DNA of 6,090 nucleotides from the IMG/VR virus record IMGVR_UViG_3300029415_000028, one strand, 5' to 3'. Under the pieces are notes generated by a model. That model was not told where the DNA came from. It ran no database searches and was given only the letters and a program-made list of their open reading frames with translations. Below are positions 1,128-6,090 of the stretch, one piece after another. Positions within the stretch are counted from its first letter, which is position 1, and every line of letters starts with the position of its first letter. A program made the position numbers and the translations under genes. Origin of the DNA: a virus.

Positions 1128-1580
1128 ATGAGAAATTTTGCTTATATCAATCCTGATTTTGAACAGGATACCGTGGTTCCCGAATTGATCGAAGGAAATC
1201 CCTGTTACGCGCCTAGTGTATATGATTCGGTTATGTTGGAAGAATTGTCTGATGGCTCGTTTATGTATATGGATATGACTTCTATTCTCCTTAATCAGGA
1301 GAAATACCGCCGTCTCCTCGGTGACATGAATGTACAGAATATTCTTGCCCAGATGCATCCTACTCAGTCTACTACCATGGATAGTATGACTGACGAAGAG
1401 CGATTTAACTGCGTTATTTCCCGTCATTGCCAGACTATGTCAGAGAGACAAGCTGTATTACAACAGTTGGCTAATGAGAAGTCTGAATTAACTAAGTATG
1501 CGCAGGCAATGTTGGAAGAACAATTGGCAGAGAAAGAAGCAGTGCCGTCTACGGATCACGCATCTGCTCCTGAGTCATAA
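1128..1580 (+). CDS. Acidic 150-aa protein between VP1 and VP2. It is a possible internal scaffolding (VP3-like) protein, but the function is not established.
   Basis: ATG at 1128 lies 12 nt after the VP1 stop; the track's 1116 start is a TTG. The stop TAA overlaps the VP2 ATG (TAATG at 1578..1582). The protein is D/E-rich with a helical, Q/E/L/K-rich C-terminus. Its size and charge resemble microvirus scaffolding proteins. I cannot verify homology. Confidence 0.7.
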   Translation: MRNFAYINPDFEQDTVVPELIEGNPCYAPSVYDSVMLEELSDGSFMYMDMTSILLNQEKYRRLLGDMNVQNILAQMHPTQSTTMDSMTDEERFNCVISRHCQTMSERQAVLQQLANEKSELTKYAQAMLEEQLAEKEAVPSTDHASAPES

Positions 1581-2704
1581 TGGGTCTTTTTGATGCTATT
1601 GCTTCTTCTGTAGGAAACCTTACCGACAATGTTGTCGGTATGATTAACCAGAATCATCAGAATAAGGTTAATCTCCGTATGATGCGAGAGCAGAACGCGT
1701 TTAACGCTGATCAGGCTGCTATACAACGTCAGTGGCAGACTGATATGTGGGATCGTAATAATCGGTATAATTCGCCTGATGAGATGATATCTCGTGGTTT
1801 AAATCCATTTGTTCAAGGTTCTGCTGCTATGGCTGGTTCTAGGTCTCCTGCTTCAGGCGGAGTTGCTGCTACTGCTGCTCCTGTTCCTAGTATGCAGGCT
1901 TATAAGCCTAATTTTTCTAATGTGTTTCAGTCTCTTGCTTCCCTTGCTCAAGCTAAGGCTTCAGAAGCTTCTGCTCGTGAATCTGGCGCTCGCGCTAATC
2001 AAACTGATACGGTAACTCCTCTTTTGTCTGATTATTATAGAGGTCTTACTAATTGGAAGAATCTAGCTATTGGTTCTTCCGGTTATTGGAATAAGGAAAC
2101 AGGCCGTATATCTGCTGCTCTAGACCAGTCTACTGAGGCTCAGAATCTAAAGAACGCCCAGTTTGCTGAGCGTATATCTGCCGCTCAAGAGACTCAAATC
2201 CTACTTAATTCTGAAGCTCAGCGTGTTATGAATAAATATATGGATGAGAATCAACAGGCTGATTTGTTTATCAAAGCACAAACTTTGGCTAATCTTCAGA
2301 ATCAAGGTGCTCTTACGGAAAAACAGATTCAGACTGAAATTCAGCGTGCTATTCTTACTGCTGCTGAGGCTTCTGGTAAGAAAATTGATAATCGTTTGGC
2401 TTCTGAAACGGCTGATTCTTTGATTAAGGCAGCTAACGCCTCTAATGAATTGCAATATCGTGATAGTACGTATGATTATAAGAATGTTAAGCTTCGTAAA
2501 CATACGGAGTATAAAACTTCTATGGCGAATCAGAAAGCTGCTGAATATGGCGCAGACTTGGTCCGCAAACAAGGTCGTACTCATTATTGGGAGTCTGTTT
2601 CGCATGGTCTTGGTGCTATTGCTTCCGGTAGTGGCAATGTTATTGGTACCTATAATAGAGCATTCCCTCTTAAACCTATATCTGTGAAGGGTTTTGGTCG
2701 ATAA
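1580..2704 (+). CDS. VP2: VP2 minor capsid / DNA pilot protein (H-like), 374 aa.
   Basis: N-terminus is GLFDAI...NQNHQNKVNLRMMREQNAFNADQAAIQRQW...NRYNSPDEMISRGLNPF. This is the Q/N-rich block followed by 'YNSP....GLNP' that I recognise from non-phiX Microviridae VP2 proteins. An Ala/Ser/Gly low-complexity linker follows (about 1830..1990), then a long helical Q/A/E/K-rich region. The start is coupled to the upstream gene. Confidence 0.85.
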   Translation: MGLFDAIASSVGNLTDNVVGMINQNHQNKVNLRMMREQNAFNADQAAIQRQWQTDMWDRNNRYNSPDEMISRGLNPFVQGSAAMAGSRSPASGGVAATAAPVPSMQAYKPNFSNVFQSLASLAQAKASEASARESGARANQTDTVTPLLSDYYRGLTNWKNLAIGSSGYWNKETGRISAALDQSTEAQNLKNAQFAERISAAQETQILLNSEAQRVMNKYMDENQQADLFIKAQTLANLQNQGALTEKQIQTEIQRAILTAAEASGKKIDNRLASETADSLIKAANASNELQYRDSTYDYKNVKLRKHTEYKTSMANQKAAEYGADLVRKQGRTHYWESVSHGLGAIASGSGNVIGTYNRAFPLKPISVKGFGR

Positions 2705-2781
2705 CATCCTTCAGGACTAGAAGCCCATCGCGGCGTTTGAGCGATATACACCCGCTGCCCGCGTAGGGCCTGATCGAAAAA

Positions 2782-2827
2782 CGGAGCGGAGCGACTTCCT
2801 TAAAGAAGCGTTCCGCTTCGGTATTTT
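2782..2827 (+). terminator. Candidate intrinsic terminator for the genome-length transcript.
   Basis: A 16-pair GC-rich hairpin (CGGAGCGGAGCG-A-CTTC / GAAGCGTTCCGCTTCG, loop CTTAAA) is followed directly by G-TATTTT (2821..2827). It lies 78 nt downstream of the VP2 stop and upstream of the only promoter-like element. Confidence 0.4.
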
Positions 2828-2870
2828 AGCACAGCGTGCGCAAAGGCAAGACAGTTCCTGCCTTGCCGTG

Positions 2871-2894
2871 TCTATACATCTCTGTATACATCCA
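2871..2894 (+). repeat. Tandem iteron-like repeat with a 12-nt period: TCTATACATCTC / TGTATACATCCA. The exact 8-mer TATACATC occurs at 2873..2880 and 2885..2892.
   Basis: Read directly from the sequence; 9 of 12 positions are identical between the two units. The repeat sits immediately 5' of the origin-like CCACTTG/TTAATTAA motif. Confidence 0.6.
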
Positions 2895-2932
2895 CTTGTT
2901 AATTAAGCGAAGCCCCTAGTTGTGTGCGAAGC
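2892..2932 (+). promoter_or_regulatory. Candidate (+)-strand replication origin / Rep nick region. It comprises CCACTTG|TTAATTAA followed by two GCGAAGC mini-hairpin motifs.
   Basis: CCACTTG (2892..2898) plus the AT-only 8-mer TTAATTAA (2899..2906) resembles the phiX174 gene-A cleavage region CAACTTG|ATATTAATAAC, with 6 of 7 matches in the left arm followed by an AT-rich run. GCGAAGC occurs at 2907..2913 and 2926..2932. The function is inferred by analogy only. Confidence 0.35.
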
Positions 2933-3006
2933 AAATCCGAGTTATCCTCTCGGATTCTCCCGCCCCTCGTCCATAAACGCACAACTCACACTCTACGGTA
3001 GAATCT

Positions 3007-3017
3007 AAAAAAAAAAA
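3007..3017 (+). repeat. A11 homopolymer. It forms the loop of an imperfect hairpin (AGAATCT 3000..3006 / AGATTTCT 3017..3024) and sits where an UP-element would be, upstream of the -33 box.
   Basis: Counted directly: four A at 3007..3010 and seven A at 3011..3017. Confidence 0.9.
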
Positions 3018-3024
3018 GATTTCT

Positions 3025-3055
3025 TTTGGAATTATAAAAATAGTTTGTATATTTG
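3025..3055 (+). promoter_or_regulatory. Bacteroidetes-type promoter: -33 TTTG (3025..3028), 19-nt spacer, -7 TATATTTG (3048..3055, matching TAnnTTTG).
   Basis: Both consensus elements described for Bacteroides primary-sigma promoters match exactly, at the reported spacing. The context is AT-rich and about 50 nt upstream of the first ATG (3107). I found no comparable motif pair elsewhere in the window. Confidence 0.55.
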
Positions 3056-3106
3056 CCCCCAGTTAGAAGTTACAACTGTTATTAACATTTTAAACATTTT
3101 ACAATT

Positions 3107-3301
3107 ATGCAGAAATTTATTATCTCAGTTAAAGACAAAAACACTGGTCGTGATGTTATTTCGCCTTATATTGTCAATTCTCTCGATGGCCTTGGAAATT
3201 ATTCTGAGCGAATGTCTCCGTTGGGCTTTATTGTTATTGTGGATTCGATTAAAGAAGAAAATAATTTTGTTGAAATTAAAACTCAAGGTTATGAAAACTA
3301 A
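3107..3301 (+). CDS. Hypothetical 64-aa protein, the first gene after the promoter.
   Basis: It starts at the first ATG after a 400-nt ATG-free stretch. Its composition is ordinary, not the hydrophobic kind produced by frame artefacts. Its stop (TAA 3299..3301) overlaps the next ATG (3291). I recognise no motif. Confidence 0.6.
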   Translation: MQKFIISVKDKNTGRDVISPYIVNSLDGLGNYSERMSPLGFIVIVDSIKEENNFVEIKTQGYEN

Positions 3302-3374
3302 TAATATTTGGAAAATTGTGATTGGAGCTGTATCCGCTGCTCTTGGTTATATCCTTAATGCTATTGGATTATGA
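3291..3374 (+). CDS. 27-aa micro-ORF encoding one predicted transmembrane helix (MKTNNIWKIVIGAVSAALGYILNAIGL). It is a candidate holin-like or membrane partner of the downstream peptidase.
   Basis: ATG 3291 overlaps the upstream gene by 11 nt. The stop TGA (3372..3374) overlaps the peptidase ATG (3371) in an ATGA arrangement. The N-terminus carries K2 and K8, followed by 19 uncharged, mostly hydrophobic residues. It does not overlap a larger gene, so codon-bias artefact is a less likely explanation, but the ORF is very short. Confidence 0.4.
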   Translation: MKTNNIWKIVIGAVSAALGYILNAIGL

Positions 3375-3679
3375 ATGAGACTTTGATGGATTTTCTTGAG
3401 CTGTTGTTATGCTTTAATTTGCATATTACAGTGACAAGTGCCAAACGTTCTATTGCTGAAAATAAGGCTGTCGGTGGTGTACCTTCCTCTCAGCATTTGT
3501 TTGGAGAAGCCATTGATATTAAACCTTATGGTTCTACTACTTATAGTCGCTTGCTTGAGTTTATCCACAATTATTCGGATCATACTCATGTATTTGACCA
3601 ATTGATATTATATCCTACATTTATTCATATTTCATTTGGTCCTCGTAATCGTCGCCAAGTGATTGATAAACGTAAATAG
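3371..3679 (+). CDS. Minimal zinc D,D- or L,D-peptidase of the LAS / M15 type (Peptidase_M15_3-like), 102 aa. It is a probable peptidoglycan hydrolase (endolysin).
   Basis: Motifs occur in the family order. TSAKRS...N..VGG corresponds to SGYR...N..VGG. S-Q-H42-LFGEAI-D49-I is the H-x6-D zinc motif (3494..3517). F-I-H86-I-S corresponds to the terminal F-V-H-V-D histidine (3626..3628). The roughly 40-aa N-terminal segment usual in this family is missing, and there is no signal peptide. Confidence 0.8.
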   Translation: MNETLMDFLELLLCFNLHITVTSAKRSIAENKAVGGVPSSQHLFGEAIDIKPYGSTTYSRLLEFIHNYSDHTHVFDQLILYPTFIHISFGPRNRRQVIDKRK

Positions 3680-3681
3680 TT

Positions 3682-5361
3682 ATGAATTTTTCTCCTGATT
3701 TGTTTAAGGCTGTTGACCATTGTCAGCATCGTTCGTTTATCACGAATAGGTACACTGGTGCACGTATTGCCGTTGATTGCGGTCAATGCGATTATTGTAT
3801 CCATAAGCGTGCTAAAAAGGCGTCCATGCGCGTGAAAACCGCTGGAAGTGCTTTCAGGTATTCTTATTTTGTGACGCTTACGTATGATAATGAGCATATT
3901 CCTCTATTTAATTGTAAAGTTCTTCACAGTGATTATGAGGACGCCTTAGGCATTTCAGGAAATATACATTTTGGCCATGAACACCATCAATACGTTCCTG
4001 TTTCCGAGTATCAATGTAGTGATAACTCCTCGCTCCGTCATATATTTTTCGAACAAGTTCAGGGTACAGTGCCGTTTGACCGTGAAATTAAGGAATATGT
4101 TCCTGTTACGGATAATTGGTTTCTTAGTATGGATGCTATTCGCAGTTTTATCGGTAAAACGCAAGCCGTTGACAAAACGAATTATCCCGCTTCTGAACAA
4201 TACGGTTGCGATAACCTTATTCCCTTCTTAAATTACGTTGATGTTCAGAATTATATTAAACGCTTACGTAAACATTTATCCCAACAATTAGGTTCTTATG
4301 AAACGTTACATTTCTACGCTGTGGGTGAGTACGGACCCGTGCATTTCCGCCCGCATTATCATCTCTTATTATTCACAAACTCGCAAAAAGTCTCTGAGGT
4401 TCTACGATACTGCCACGATAAGAGTTGGAAATTCGGTCGTTCAGATTTCCAGATTGCCCGAGGTGGAGCTTCTTCATACGTTGCAAGTTACGTTAACAGC
4501 CTTAGTGCTGCTCCCTTATTATATCGCTCATGCCGCGCGTTTAGACCCAAATCGCGAGCATCTGTCGGATTCTTTGAGAAAGGTTGCGATTTCGTTGAGG
4601 ACGAAGACCCTTATGCGCAGATTGAGCAAAAAATCGATTCTGTCGTTAACGGAAGAATCTATAACTTCAATGGCATCAGTGTTCGGTCAACTCCACCCAT
4701 GTCGTATATCCGTACCTTATTGCCCCGATTCTCGTCTGCTCGCAATGACGATAGTGTTGCGATTGCTCGAATTCTTCGTGCTGTACACTCAACGCCAAAA
4801 AGAATTGCAAAATTCGGATTTATCGACTACAAACAGGATTCGGTTCTGAGTCTTGTTCGTACTTATTATCAATATCTTAAAGTTCAAAATATTCTTACAG
4901 ACGATGATAAAATTGTATTACATACTTCTCGGTGCCTTACTAGGTTCTGTAACAGTTCTAGTGATGTCGATATTGAATCTTATATTAATAAGTTATATCG
5001 GCTGTTCTTATATGTCTATAAATTCTTCCGTAATTGGCATCTCCCTCTCTTCGGTTCTGATATTAGCGCTTACTCCGGTCGTATTAGTTTTATCATTAAA
5101 ACAGGTATAGAATATGAAGCGAAAAAAAATTATGAAAGTCTACGAGATACATATAACATCCGTTCCCAATTCCCCGAAATCTCGGATTGTATGTTTGCGT
5201 TGCCTCAGAACGGGCAAGAGATTGATATCTTGTCGAATGTTTCACGTGAGACAATTCAGTTCCTTGAGCAACTCCGGTACCGTAGTTCTACATTCTGTCG
5301 CGATATGATTAAGCATAAGAAGCTTAATGATGCTAATGATATATTCAACCGTATGGTTTAA
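3682..5361 (+). CDS. VP4: VP4 rolling-circle replication initiator (HUH endonuclease, phiX gene-A family), 559 aa.
   Basis: Motif 1 is FVTLTY (3868..3885). Motif 2 is RPHYHLLLF, with H-Y-H at 4354..4362. Motif 3 is the double tyrosine Y266-VAS-Y270-VNS (4477..4491), compared with phiX174 A protein YVAKYVNK. The N-terminus has a Cys/His cluster (C14, H16, C33, C36, C39). The ATG is 2 nt after the peptidase stop. Confidence 0.95.
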   Translation: MNFSPDLFKAVDHCQHRSFITNRYTGARIAVDCGQCDYCIHKRAKKASMRVKTAGSAFRYSYFVTLTYDNEHIPLFNCKVLHSDYEDALGISGNIHFGHEHHQYVPVSEYQCSDNSSLRHIFFEQVQGTVPFDREIKEYVPVTDNWFLSMDAIRSFIGKTQAVDKTNYPASEQYGCDNLIPFLNYVDVQNYIKRLRKHLSQQLGSYETLHFYAVGEYGPVHFRPHYHLLLFTNSQKVSEVLRYCHDKSWKFGRSDFQIARGGASSYVASYVNSLSAAPLLYRSCRAFRPKSRASVGFFEKGCDFVEDEDPYAQIEQKIDSVVNGRIYNFNGISVRSTPPMSYIRTLLPRFSSARNDDSVAIARILRAVHSTPKRIAKFGFIDYKQDSVLSLVRTYYQYLKVQNILTDDDKIVLHTSRCLTRFCNSSSDVDIESYINKLYRLFLYVYKFFRNWHLPLFGSDISAYSGRISFIIKTGIEYEAKKNYESLRDTYNIRSQFPEISDCMFALPQNGQEIDILSNVSRETIQFLEQLRYRSSTFCRDMIKHKKLNDANDIFNRMV

Positions 5362-5378
5362 CTTTAATTTTATTAATT

Positions 5379-6090
5379 ATGAGTGATTTTAATCCGCTAG
5401 ACCGAGCGAAAGTTGCTGTGCATCGCTCCTCCTTTGATTTGTCTAGTAAAAAATTGTTTACAGCGAAAATTGGAGAAATTTTACCTTGCTATTGGCAGAT
5501 TGCCATCCCTGGTACTAAGTATCGTATTTCATCTGATTGGTTTACCCGTACCGTTCCGGTTAATACGGCTGCTTATACTCGTATCAAGGAGTATTACGAC
5601 TTCTATGCTGTGCCGTTACGACTGATTTCCCGTGCGCTTCCACAGGCGTTTACTCAGATGACGGATTATATGACTTCTGCCGCTTCTAATTCTGCTAATA
5701 CACAACAGTTGTCTAGTGTTCCTTATGCTCCTGTTGGTAACATCTCTGCCGAGATTCAGGCTCGTGTGACTGCTAAGACTGTCGATGATGCTGGTTTTGG
5801 TTTTGCTTATGGCTCTTGTAAGCTATTAGATATGCTTGGTTATGGTTCATTCATTGGTACCGGTAATACTAAGAAGAGTGATATTACTATGCAGTATCTT
5901 GGCCTTGATACTGCTTCACTGTCTGATAGTCAAAATCCTCTTATTTATGGTACTAGTATCAATTTGAATCTTCTTCCTATTTTCACTTATCAGAAGATTT
6001 ATTTTGATTTTTATTCAAACTCTCAATGGGAGAAGCATTTGGCTTATTCTTACAATGTTGATTATTGGGACGGTAAGAGCTCTGTTGAAA
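5379..6090 (+). CDS. VP1: Major capsid protein VP1, N-terminal part. It is open at the window end, and the unique portion ends at 5991 before continuing at base 1.
   Basis: I translated it by hand and found no stop from 5379 to 6090. The sequence is MSDFNPLDRAKVAVHRSSFDLSSKKLFTAKIGEILPCYWQIAIPGTKYRISSDWFTRTVPVNTAAYTRIKEYYDFYAVPLRLIS. This follows the canonical Microviridae VP1/F N-terminal pattern (RSxFDLS..K.T...G.L.P......PG......R..P........D.F.VP.RL). The ORF track omits it only because it has no stop in the window. Confidence 0.93.
   Translation, partial: MSDFNPLDRAKVAVHRSSFDLSSKKLFTAKIGEILPCYWQIAIPGTKYRISSDWFTRTVPVNTAAYTRIKEYYDFYAVPLRLISRALPQAFTQMTDYMTSAASNSANTQQLSSVPYAPVGNISAEIQARVTAKTVDDAGFGFAYGSCKLLDMLGYGSFIGTGNTKKSDITMQYLGLDTASLSDSQNPLIYGTSINLNLLPIFTYQKIYFDFYSNSQWEKHLAYSYNVDYWDGKSSVE
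5992..6090. repeat. Terminal redundancy, copy 2, identical to 1..99. It is an assembly or linearisation overlap of a circular genome.
   Basis: Exact 99/99 match to the start of the window. Confidence 0.97.

Follow-up and report, generated by a model that had tools for sequence, protein, structure and literature searches.

Here we describe a conserved non-coding island at positions 2705-2995 of IMG/VR virus record IMGVR_UViG_3300029415_000028, a single strand of 6,090 nucleotides (nt) that we call the window and whose coordinates are used throughout. The island is a real, plus-strand-specific array of hairpins, found once per genome in a large group of Bacteroidales microviruses; its conservation, strand specificity, covariation, mini-hairpin rule and distribution among genomes are established. 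We lean, by a modest degree, towards reading it as a complementary-strand origin that acts as folded single-stranded DNA (ssDNA) and is preceded by the terminator of the structural operon.

Positions 1-99 of the window are identical to 5992-6090. This 99-nt terminal direct repeat is an assembly overlap: the window holds a circular microvirus genome, 5,991 nt in true length. Every gene lies on the plus strand, and the layout, in amino acids (aa) and open reading frames (ORFs), is as follows.

5379 through the window end to 1115 (across the junction), plus strand: major capsid protein gene
1128-1580, plus strand: gene for a 150-aa protein
1580-2704, plus strand: pilot protein (VP2) gene, stop codon at 2702-2704
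2705..2995, plus strand: the whole conserved non-coding island, marked by no ORF, no ATG, 52% GC, its fold z-score and its conservation
3007..3055, plus strand: A11 run and Bacteroidetes-type promoter (TTTG at 3025-3028, a 19-nt spacer, TATATTTG at 3048-3055), outside the fold and read from the sequence
3107-3301, plus strand: 64-aa ORF with its ATG at 3107, the next credible gene 3' of the island
3371-3679, plus strand: M15-type peptidase gene
3682-5361, plus strand: Rep gene

The same gene order, with the peptidase between VP2 and Rep, is seen in the Alpavirinae (Roux et al.), which have been linked to Bacteroidetes hosts (PMC3394797). A preliminary description of this DNA had called the genome gap-free outside the island, with all other junctions 17 nt or shorter; the junction from 5361 to 5379 is indeed 17 nt, but a 69-nt gap separates the 64-aa ORF from the peptidase gene (3302-3370). 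This gap disappears if an overlapping 73-aa ORF (3153-3374) is the real gene.

As described earlier, some 400 nt after the pilot gene (2705-3106) hold no credible ORF on either strand. On the plus strand there is no ORF of at least 30 aa in 2705-3044, and on the minus strand the sole ORF in contact with the island is a 33-aa GTG ORF at its 5' edge. The island is GC-rich (52.2% in 2705-2995 as against 40.4% for the genome), and its tail at 2957-2995 is C-rich and G-poor, with 19 C and 3 G among 39 bases, both as first reported. The absence of any plus-strand ATG from 2705-3106 was confirmed, with 7.2-7.8 expected, and this interval falls within the longest ATG-free run of the genome (470 nt). 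Across the family, ATG is only about two-fold depleted in the island region and CAT and TGA are depleted equally; we therefore attribute its complete absence here to composition and chance, and reject ATG avoidance as a translation or start-codon signal. Coding potential was also rejected, there being no ORF and a pattern of conservation that is one of paired columns. Deposited coding sequences annotated as “hypothetical protein” overlap the structured element in PP511392.1 (3352..3678), PP511330.1 (3581..3784) and PV598014.1 (2326..2736), and these are probably spurious ORF calls.

A blastn search matched the island to 34 GenBank microviruses with 74-93% identity, and the match begins precisely where the pilot gene ends. 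The sources of these relatives are dog faeces, lemur faeces and saliva, and a human vaginal sample; an invariant 25-mer of the island recurs in 102 IMG/VR contigs, all microvirus-sized, from dog, human, lemur and other samples. Capsid identity of 60-80% is found only in 34 GenBank records, a number equal to that of the island holders and coincident with them among the matches listed, while the next relatives reach at most 38%. Aligned bases of three genome pairs agree at 81-86% in the island, whereas the values are 63-67% in the pilot gene, 73-75% in the capsid gene and 74-79% in Rep, so that no other DNA of the genome is as conserved or constrained.

Conservation of the 3' part reaches further. 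With a profile of the island, the 3' third is detected, each time on the gene strand, in phiHBP1 and in a second clade, which is Dulem virus 257-like and has below 40% capsid identity. A covariance model (R1) locates this 3' core (2896-2992) once per genome and on the gene strand in 67/67 genomes with the region covered, and its matches include phiHBP1, a cultured phage of Bacteroides fragilis (core at 2322-2429), and prophages in Prevotella, Xylanibacter, Paraprevotella and Bacteroides. In prophages the core lies about 1.7-2.3 kb after the capsid gene, mostly near 2-2.2 kb. It is common to clades whose capsid proteins are only 32-40% identical. The exact 25-nt island motif gave 0 hits in 185,579 bacterial genomes, and there is therefore no sign of prophages of this particular clade; a blastn search of the island against PLSDB plasmids returned chance fragments only. 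Two contigs of 1.4-1.9 kb in the Saccharospirillum alexandrii and Marinomonas arctica assemblies (L199 and L200) have capsids 76-80% identical to those of the Dulem virus 257 group. The assemblies are of marine Gammaproteobacteria, and the two contigs seem to be contaminants, not prophages.

It had been suggested that the island could be a horizontally acquired module or, if the assembly were at fault, a chimeric insert. We give this next to no credence. Its GC content above that of the rest of the genome is the one point in favour; against it, 34 independent GenBank genomes and 102 IMG/VR contigs all carry the island in one and the same place, prophages and clades of 32-40% capsid identity possess its core, and nothing similar was found in plasmids or in the 185,579 bacterial genomes.

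The island folds far better than chance. With RNA parameters it reaches -95.4 kcal/mol (z = -4.4) and with DNA parameters -52.8 kcal/mol (z = -5.0), and it beats all 200 shuffles in each case (0/200 as good), the comparison that had been proposed as a check. The minus strand of the island also folds well (z = -4.0), and energy alone therefore gives no strand specificity. No named RNA family had been recognised in the region, and for the window and 7 relatives there is no Rfam hit at E up to 1; a scan for tRNA and tmRNA found nothing.

Strand and structure are decided instead by covariation. Over 108 distinct islands of the clade (alignment A1), pairing reaches 96.8% in a curated structure that has 11 helices and 63 pairs, as against 29-48% for slid controls, and both-sided changes occur at 22 pairs, against 9.5 in shuffles, a value reached in 0/500 of them. 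The stems are thus conserved among relatives with compensatory changes. These are clear at pairs 2730-2742, 2760-2766, 2789-2813, 2831-2837, 2850-2863 and 2926-2932, with further runs joining 2922-2924 to 2980-2982 and, from alignment columns, 2936-2938 to 2952-2954. The two G.T pairs singled out at the outset are present, and in relatives they swap with G-C (pair 2784.2818 is GC 68 / GU 35 and pair 2791.2811 is GU 62 / GC 38), supporting plus-strand folding. G.T pairs are common and A.C pairs rare, and hence the folded strand is the plus strand.

The 5' part of the island, which is specific to the clade, comprises the following features.

2707..2716, plus strand: hairpin Ha (TCC/GGA), weakly supported, with 74% of cells paired and one pair CG 99 / UA 6
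2727..2745, plus strand: hairpin Hb (ATCGC / GCGAT), 100% of cells paired, pair 2730-2742 GC 95 / AU 7 / CG 4
2757..2769, plus strand: hairpin Hc (GCCC-GCGTA-GGGC), pair 2760-2766 CG 104 / UA 4
2782..2820, plus strand: long terminator-like hairpin Hd, 16 pairs, 96% paired, pair 2789-2813 GC 96 / AU 7
2786..2792, plus strand: GCGGAGC mini-hairpin motif, free only in the short Hd conformer
2822..2827, plus strand: T-rich tract TATTTT, inside a conserved GGTA-N-TTTAGC block
2829..2839, plus strand: hairpin He (GCAC / GTGC), pair 2831-2837 AU 80 / GC 28, 100% of cells paired
2845..2867, plus strand: hairpin Hf, 99% of cells paired, one pair GC 47 / GU 39 / AU 19
2873..2888, plus strand: optional palindromic hairpin Hg (TATACA-N4-TGTATA), 94.6% paired where present

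Three of the four hairpins named in the preliminary description stand on this evidence (2782-2820, 2845-2867 and 2934-2956), whereas the one at 2723-2769 is better drawn as two, 2727-2745 and 2757-2769. The outer helix 2723-2726/2766-2769 of the minimum-energy fold was rejected in favour of the local hairpin Hc: the outer pair 2726-2766 is lost in exactly those 4 sequences in which 2760-2766 goes from C-G to T-A. Hg is deleted in about 15 members, and a XerCD/dif-like site at this palindrome (2873-2888) is unsupported, its second arm being deleted in them. Near 2895/2896 there is an insertion hotspot, where an extra hairpin (CCTAGATCTATTAGTAATGGATCTAGG) is found in about 17 relatives (L003, L013, L042, L066 and others); in L066 three hairpin units, each about 23 nt, stand in tandem.

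Hd deserves separate treatment. In addition to the long form it has a short one, in which 2805-2810 pair with 2814-2819, with covariation of its own at 2806-2818 (GC 68 / AT 35). The two conformers are mutually exclusive, and each has a compensatory pair (2789-2813 for the long form, 2806-2818 for the short). GCGGAGC at 2786-2792 reads GCGAAGC in divergent members, and the exchange, in which the short form frees this motif, recalls the switch from hairpin I to a mini-hairpin proposed for G4. A pairing of 2786-2792 with 2907-2913 offered by RNAalifold was rejected; both motifs are self-complementary, and covariation favours the local and long-hairpin pairings.

A terminator scan picked out the hairpin at 2805-2819 together with GGTATTTTAG, and both forms of Hd end in this conserved sequence. 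The terminator-like hairpin lies 78 nt after the pilot stop codon, and 2782-2827 is, judged by sequence, probably the intrinsic terminator of the structural (capsid, scaffold, pilot) operon. On the other side of the island, a search for TANNTTTG matches 3048-3055, in a promoter arrangement that is conserved in relatives upstream of the 64-aa ORF; this putative Bacteroidetes-type promoter supports a Bacteroidales host. A scan for sigma-70 promoters found no more matches than chance. The core, lying between the terminator-like hairpin and the next promoter, is therefore perhaps little transcribed.

The cross-clade alignment (A3) gives the core a fixed order: AT-rich linker, first mini-hairpin (MH1), 5' stem arm, second mini-hairpin (MH2), hairpin Hi, pyrimidine tract with CTYGTC, 3' stem arm and ACAC. 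In the window these are as follows.

2896..2906, plus strand: unpaired AT-rich linker opening the 3' core, AT-rich in all clades
2907..2913, plus strand: mini-hairpin MH1 (GCGAAGC), closing pairs covarying across clades (GC 48 / AU 14, CG 52 / UA 10)
2918..2925, plus strand: 5' arm of the long-range stem (AGTTGTGT), 99.9% paired within the clade
2926..2932, plus strand: mini-hairpin MH2 (GCGAAGC), closing pair GC 60 / CG 34 / AU 8
2934..2956, plus strand: hairpin Hi, all 8 pairs with compensatory changes across clades, 98.1% of cells paired
2957..2971, plus strand: unpaired pyrimidine tract ending in CTCGTC (2966-2971), candidate initiation site
2979..2986, plus strand: 3' arm of the long-range stem (GCACAACT), followed by a conserved CACAC at 2987-2991

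The pairing of the core is kept while its sequence changes. The long stem is built from nine different complementary arm pairs across lineages, among them AGTTGTGT/GCACAACT, GAGTTTGC/GCAAACTC and ACTTTCGT/GCGAAAGT. MH1 has a nearly invariant GAA loop, and MH2 appears as GCGAAGC, CCGAAGG, ACGAAGT, CCGGAGG, CCGTAGG or GCGAAAGC. In an alignment fitted to R1 (A4), whose counts are for that reason biased towards the structure, the covariation score is 0.62 against 0.16 in shuffles, and all 8 pairs of Hi covary along with the closing pairs of the mini-hairpins; the long stem scores lower on A4 only because clade B sits one column out of register, and it is fully complementary. Although double changes are many in the core helices, hardly any G.T wobbles occur there (about 0.3-1.3% of cells). 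The Hi loop is TTATCCT at 2942-2948, and a TTAYCYC loop is kept between clades A and B, whose stems share no sequence.

The unpaired part of the core is equally distinctive. CTYGTC or a close variant is present in 66/67 sequences. The tract before it occurs in 61 distinct versions among 66 genomes, keeps a length of 10-13 nt throughout and is 87% pyrimidine. In looking for a counterpart of the CTG at which primase starts in G4, we observed a conserved CTG at 2770-2772, directly 3' of hairpin 2757-2769 (Hc), and the universal CTYGTC after Hi.

Could CTYGTC rather be the site at which Rep nicks and re-ligates, presented by a hairpin in a viral-strand (plus) origin? We think it decidedly unlikely. 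No unpaired sequence is conserved more widely than CTYGTC with the AT-rich stretch after it, each genome has a single copy, on the plus strand in every case, and HUH endonucleases frequently cut in loops beside hairpins. The motif also loosely recalls the phiX174 cleavage site, CAACTTG/ATATTAATAAC. Against this, the 18-mer of the phiX174 origin, the type of viral-strand origin in which Rep cuts a conserved CAACTTGATATTAATAAC, is not matched in the window within 3 mismatches, with only a loose resemblance of CTTG and an AT-rich stretch at 2966-2978. Two-base-pair mini-hairpins cannot extrude from duplex DNA, and the array therefore points to a single-stranded stage. A tract of variable sequence with fixed length and composition is also unexpected beside a nick site. 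Were the core such an origin, the complementary-strand origin may adjoin it, as in the intergenic region of filamentous phages.

All three plus-strand GCGNAGC motifs of the genome fall inside the island. We counted the motif N-CG-N(1-2)-AG-N' in the largest non-coding gap of each genome, with gaps set by a simple ORF rule and densities pooled over related genomes, as follows.

Clade A: 6.1 per kb on the plus strand, 0.9 on the minus strand of the same DNA, 1.2-1.5 in the rest of the genome
Clade B: 6.6 per kb on the plus strand, 0.9 on the minus strand of the same DNA, 0.7-1.5 in the rest of the genome
24 loci without detectable homology: 5.7 per kb on the plus strand, 1.5 on the minus strand

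Family-wide, the motif is enriched 6-20 fold in a strand-specific manner, and the enrichment recurs in clades whose sequences cannot be aligned. GNA loops outnumber GNNA loops 262 to 14 in clade A and 154 to 86 in clade B, where the latter include GTTA and GTAA; the closing pair is C-G rather than G-C in 284 vs 5 cases (clade A) and 214 vs 26 (clade B). The middle base of the loop varies (A, G, T), and its G and A are fixed. These loops and closing pairs match the stability rule of DNA mini-hairpins: the motif is exactly that of the d(GCGNAGC) and d(GCGNNAGC) mini-hairpins of Hirao and colleagues, with C-G closing, G first, A last and a free middle base (PMC13037366), and PMC3201870 states that the stability of DNA mini-hairpins depends on the closing pair. 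Such mini-hairpins are a structural motif and not a functional family; in the island they form conserved arrays inside a larger fold.

This asymmetry bears on a further possibility, that the island is a regulatory region of duplex DNA (protein sites, upstream elements of the promoter) or a packaging signal, its hairpins being incidental palindromes. The island does lie just upstream of the conserved Bacteroidetes-type promoter and A-run. Nevertheless we hold the idea to be very improbable: compensatory changes keep non-palindromic and long-range helices paired as well as hairpins, and the strands differ strongly (G.T and not A.C pairs; GNA loops at 6 vs 0.9 per kb), where duplex sites would be symmetric.

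What, then, could a single-stranded plus-strand array do for these viruses? Rolling-circle ssDNA replicons each need a folded, strand-specific lagging-strand origin that is read by the host, and plasmid ssi and sso signals are non-coding stretches of 100-300 nt, folded as ssDNA and strand specific, with conserved unpaired motifs that are used only by host or plasmid priming enzymes (PMC5714925). Mini-hairpins of the type seen here occur in such elements: G4 has GCGAAAGC at its primase start, St-1 and alpha3 have GCGTTAGC, and ssiA of RSF1010 has CCGAAGG; GCGGAGC is also found in the N4 hairpin promoters (PMC13037366). A complementary-strand priming site was among the roles first put forward, and it is the one we favour, on the plus-strand fold, conservation above that of the genes, the single copy, and the motifs shared with G4, St-1, alpha3 and ssiA. 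More fully, we favour it because of the position, size, strand specificity, single copy and depth of conservation of the island, its loops obeying the DNA rule, its few wobbles, and the placement of terminator and promoter. Here we infer that DNA is the active molecule and priming its function.

The closest known counterparts are the G4-type origins of G4, St-1, alpha3 and phiK (Bullavirinae), which likewise occupy a non-coding intergenic stretch of the plus strand, that of G4 lying between F and G. The G4 region (bases 3884-4019) is a 136-nt intergenic stretch with three hairpins that folds with z = -4.7, and the island likewise has several stable hairpins. Primer in G4 covers 3970-3997 (G4 record) and starts at CTG just 3' of a hairpin capped by GCGAAAGC. 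Both the G4-type origins and the island carry the GCGNNAGC or GCGNAGC mini-hairpin, which in the former caps a hairpin beside the unpaired initiation site, and by analogy a dependence on host and orientation may be shared. The island differs in being about twice as long, in having a core junction closed by a long-range stem, and in having 3 to 7 mini-hairpins instead of one; its conserved unpaired motif is CTYGTC after a pyrimidine tract, where the G4-type motif is CTG, and the hosts are Bacteroidales and E. coli, respectively.

Other systems share parts of this plan. RSF1010 ssiA and ssiB, ssoA and ssoU are alike as folded ssDNA signals, and ssiA has the CCGAAGG mini-hairpin. The ssoA-type origin is marked by a CS-6 loop motif, TAGCGT, and an RSB site; a reading of the sequence shows TAGCG to be absent from 2705-2995. 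In the intergenic region of f1/M13, the terminator of the upstream operon comes first and is followed by the hairpins for complementary-strand priming. The island has a similar order of terminator-like hairpin, hairpin array and next promoter, although f1/M13 belong to an unrelated phage family with no sequence similarity to it, and a packaging role is not expected in microviruses. RNA polymerase promoter-like hairpins of the f1/M13 kind were not identified in the island.

We envisage an element in two parts, a clade-specific 5' part with the terminator and a shared 3' core (2896-2992) that would be the minus-strand origin in the form of folded ssDNA. Host SSB would coat the entering ssDNA except for the folded GC-rich hairpins and the very stable C-GNA-G mini-hairpins. 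The long-range stem 2918-2925/2979-2986 would close a junction holding MH2 and Hi, leaving the pyrimidine tract and CTYGTC (2957-2971) unpaired. Host primase, or possibly RNA polymerase, would begin an RNA primer at CTYGTC and copy the 10-13 nt pyrimidine tract leftwards, giving a short purine-rich primer that stops at Hi, and a host polymerase would extend it to the double-stranded replicative form.

Several points weigh against this proposal. The role given to CTYGTC is a guess. With R1, neither G4 nor alpha3 yields a hit under E = 3, not even when filters are switched off, and unlike plasmid single-strand origins the element is found only in microviruses, with no PLSDB similarity. The same helices would form in plus-sense RNA, GAAA and GTAA loops would also make good GNRA tetraloops in RNA, and the helices of the 5' half are rich in G.U/G.T pairs (14% of cells in 2782-2820), as is typical of RNA. 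Hd pairs the middle base of GCGGAGC (GC 96 / AU 7), so that this copy is no free mini-hairpin in the main conformer, and a few members violate the GNA rule in MH2 (GCGAACGC, CCGACGG, CCAAAGG). Finally, the sequences within clades are related, and pooled counts overstate the number of independent events.

Some of these points belong to the other role first suggested, that of a structured 3' untranslated region of the structural-gene mRNA or a processed non-coding RNA, possibly concerned with termination, protection from 3' exonucleases or the binding of a host or phage factor. We regard it as unlikely, though not far-fetched, that the island acts in this way. The plus strand is the transcribed strand as well, with the island following immediately on the pilot stop codon; the hairpin at 2782-2820 and GGUAUUUUAG together have the form of an intrinsic terminator; the 5' half often exchanges G-C for G.U; both exclusive Hd conformers have covariation support; and the fold with RNA parameters gives z = -4.4. 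The part of the suggestion that is supported is the G.U-rich, terminator-like 2782-2820 followed by GGTATTTTAG, and the rest could act as RNA. On the other side, no Rfam family matches the window or the 7 relatives at E up to 1, and the core follows the terminator-like hairpin with no promoter upstream of it. The loops obey the DNA rule (C-GNA-G triloops far in excess of GNRA, with GTTA present, and a strict C-G closing pair), the core is nearly without wobble pairs, and ATG depletion is not specific to start codons. That the core in particular is a structured non-coding RNA with a role beyond termination, such as the binding of a host protein, seems to us doubtful; it would be the first such class in the Microviridae.

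To our knowledge, the conversion of ssDNA to the double-stranded form is known only for microviruses of E. coli (phiX174, G4), and we know of no origin of either strand defined for the abundant gut microviruses of Bacteroidales. In the literature we found no description of an RNA motif in Microviridae or of a single-strand origin in Bacteroides, and the phiHBP1 paper is silent on this region. The core supplies a precise candidate: 100 nt, once per genome, with an invariant CTYGTC, a pyrimidine tract of fixed length and mini-hairpins that follow the DNA rule. A direct test is possible in phiHBP1 on B. fragilis, the first cultured system, which carries the element. The covariance model can serve as a marker for this virus group and its prophages, it also marks out “hypothetical protein” ORFs deposited across this region as probably spurious, and the element could be used as an origin for ssDNA vectors in Bacteroides.

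Two relatives, L006 and L007 (Dulem viruses 254 and 255), have about 160 nt of additional sequence (3305-3540) inserted after the pilot gene and before the island; this insert carries a TTTG...TAnnTTTG promoter of its own together with a 50-aa ORF.

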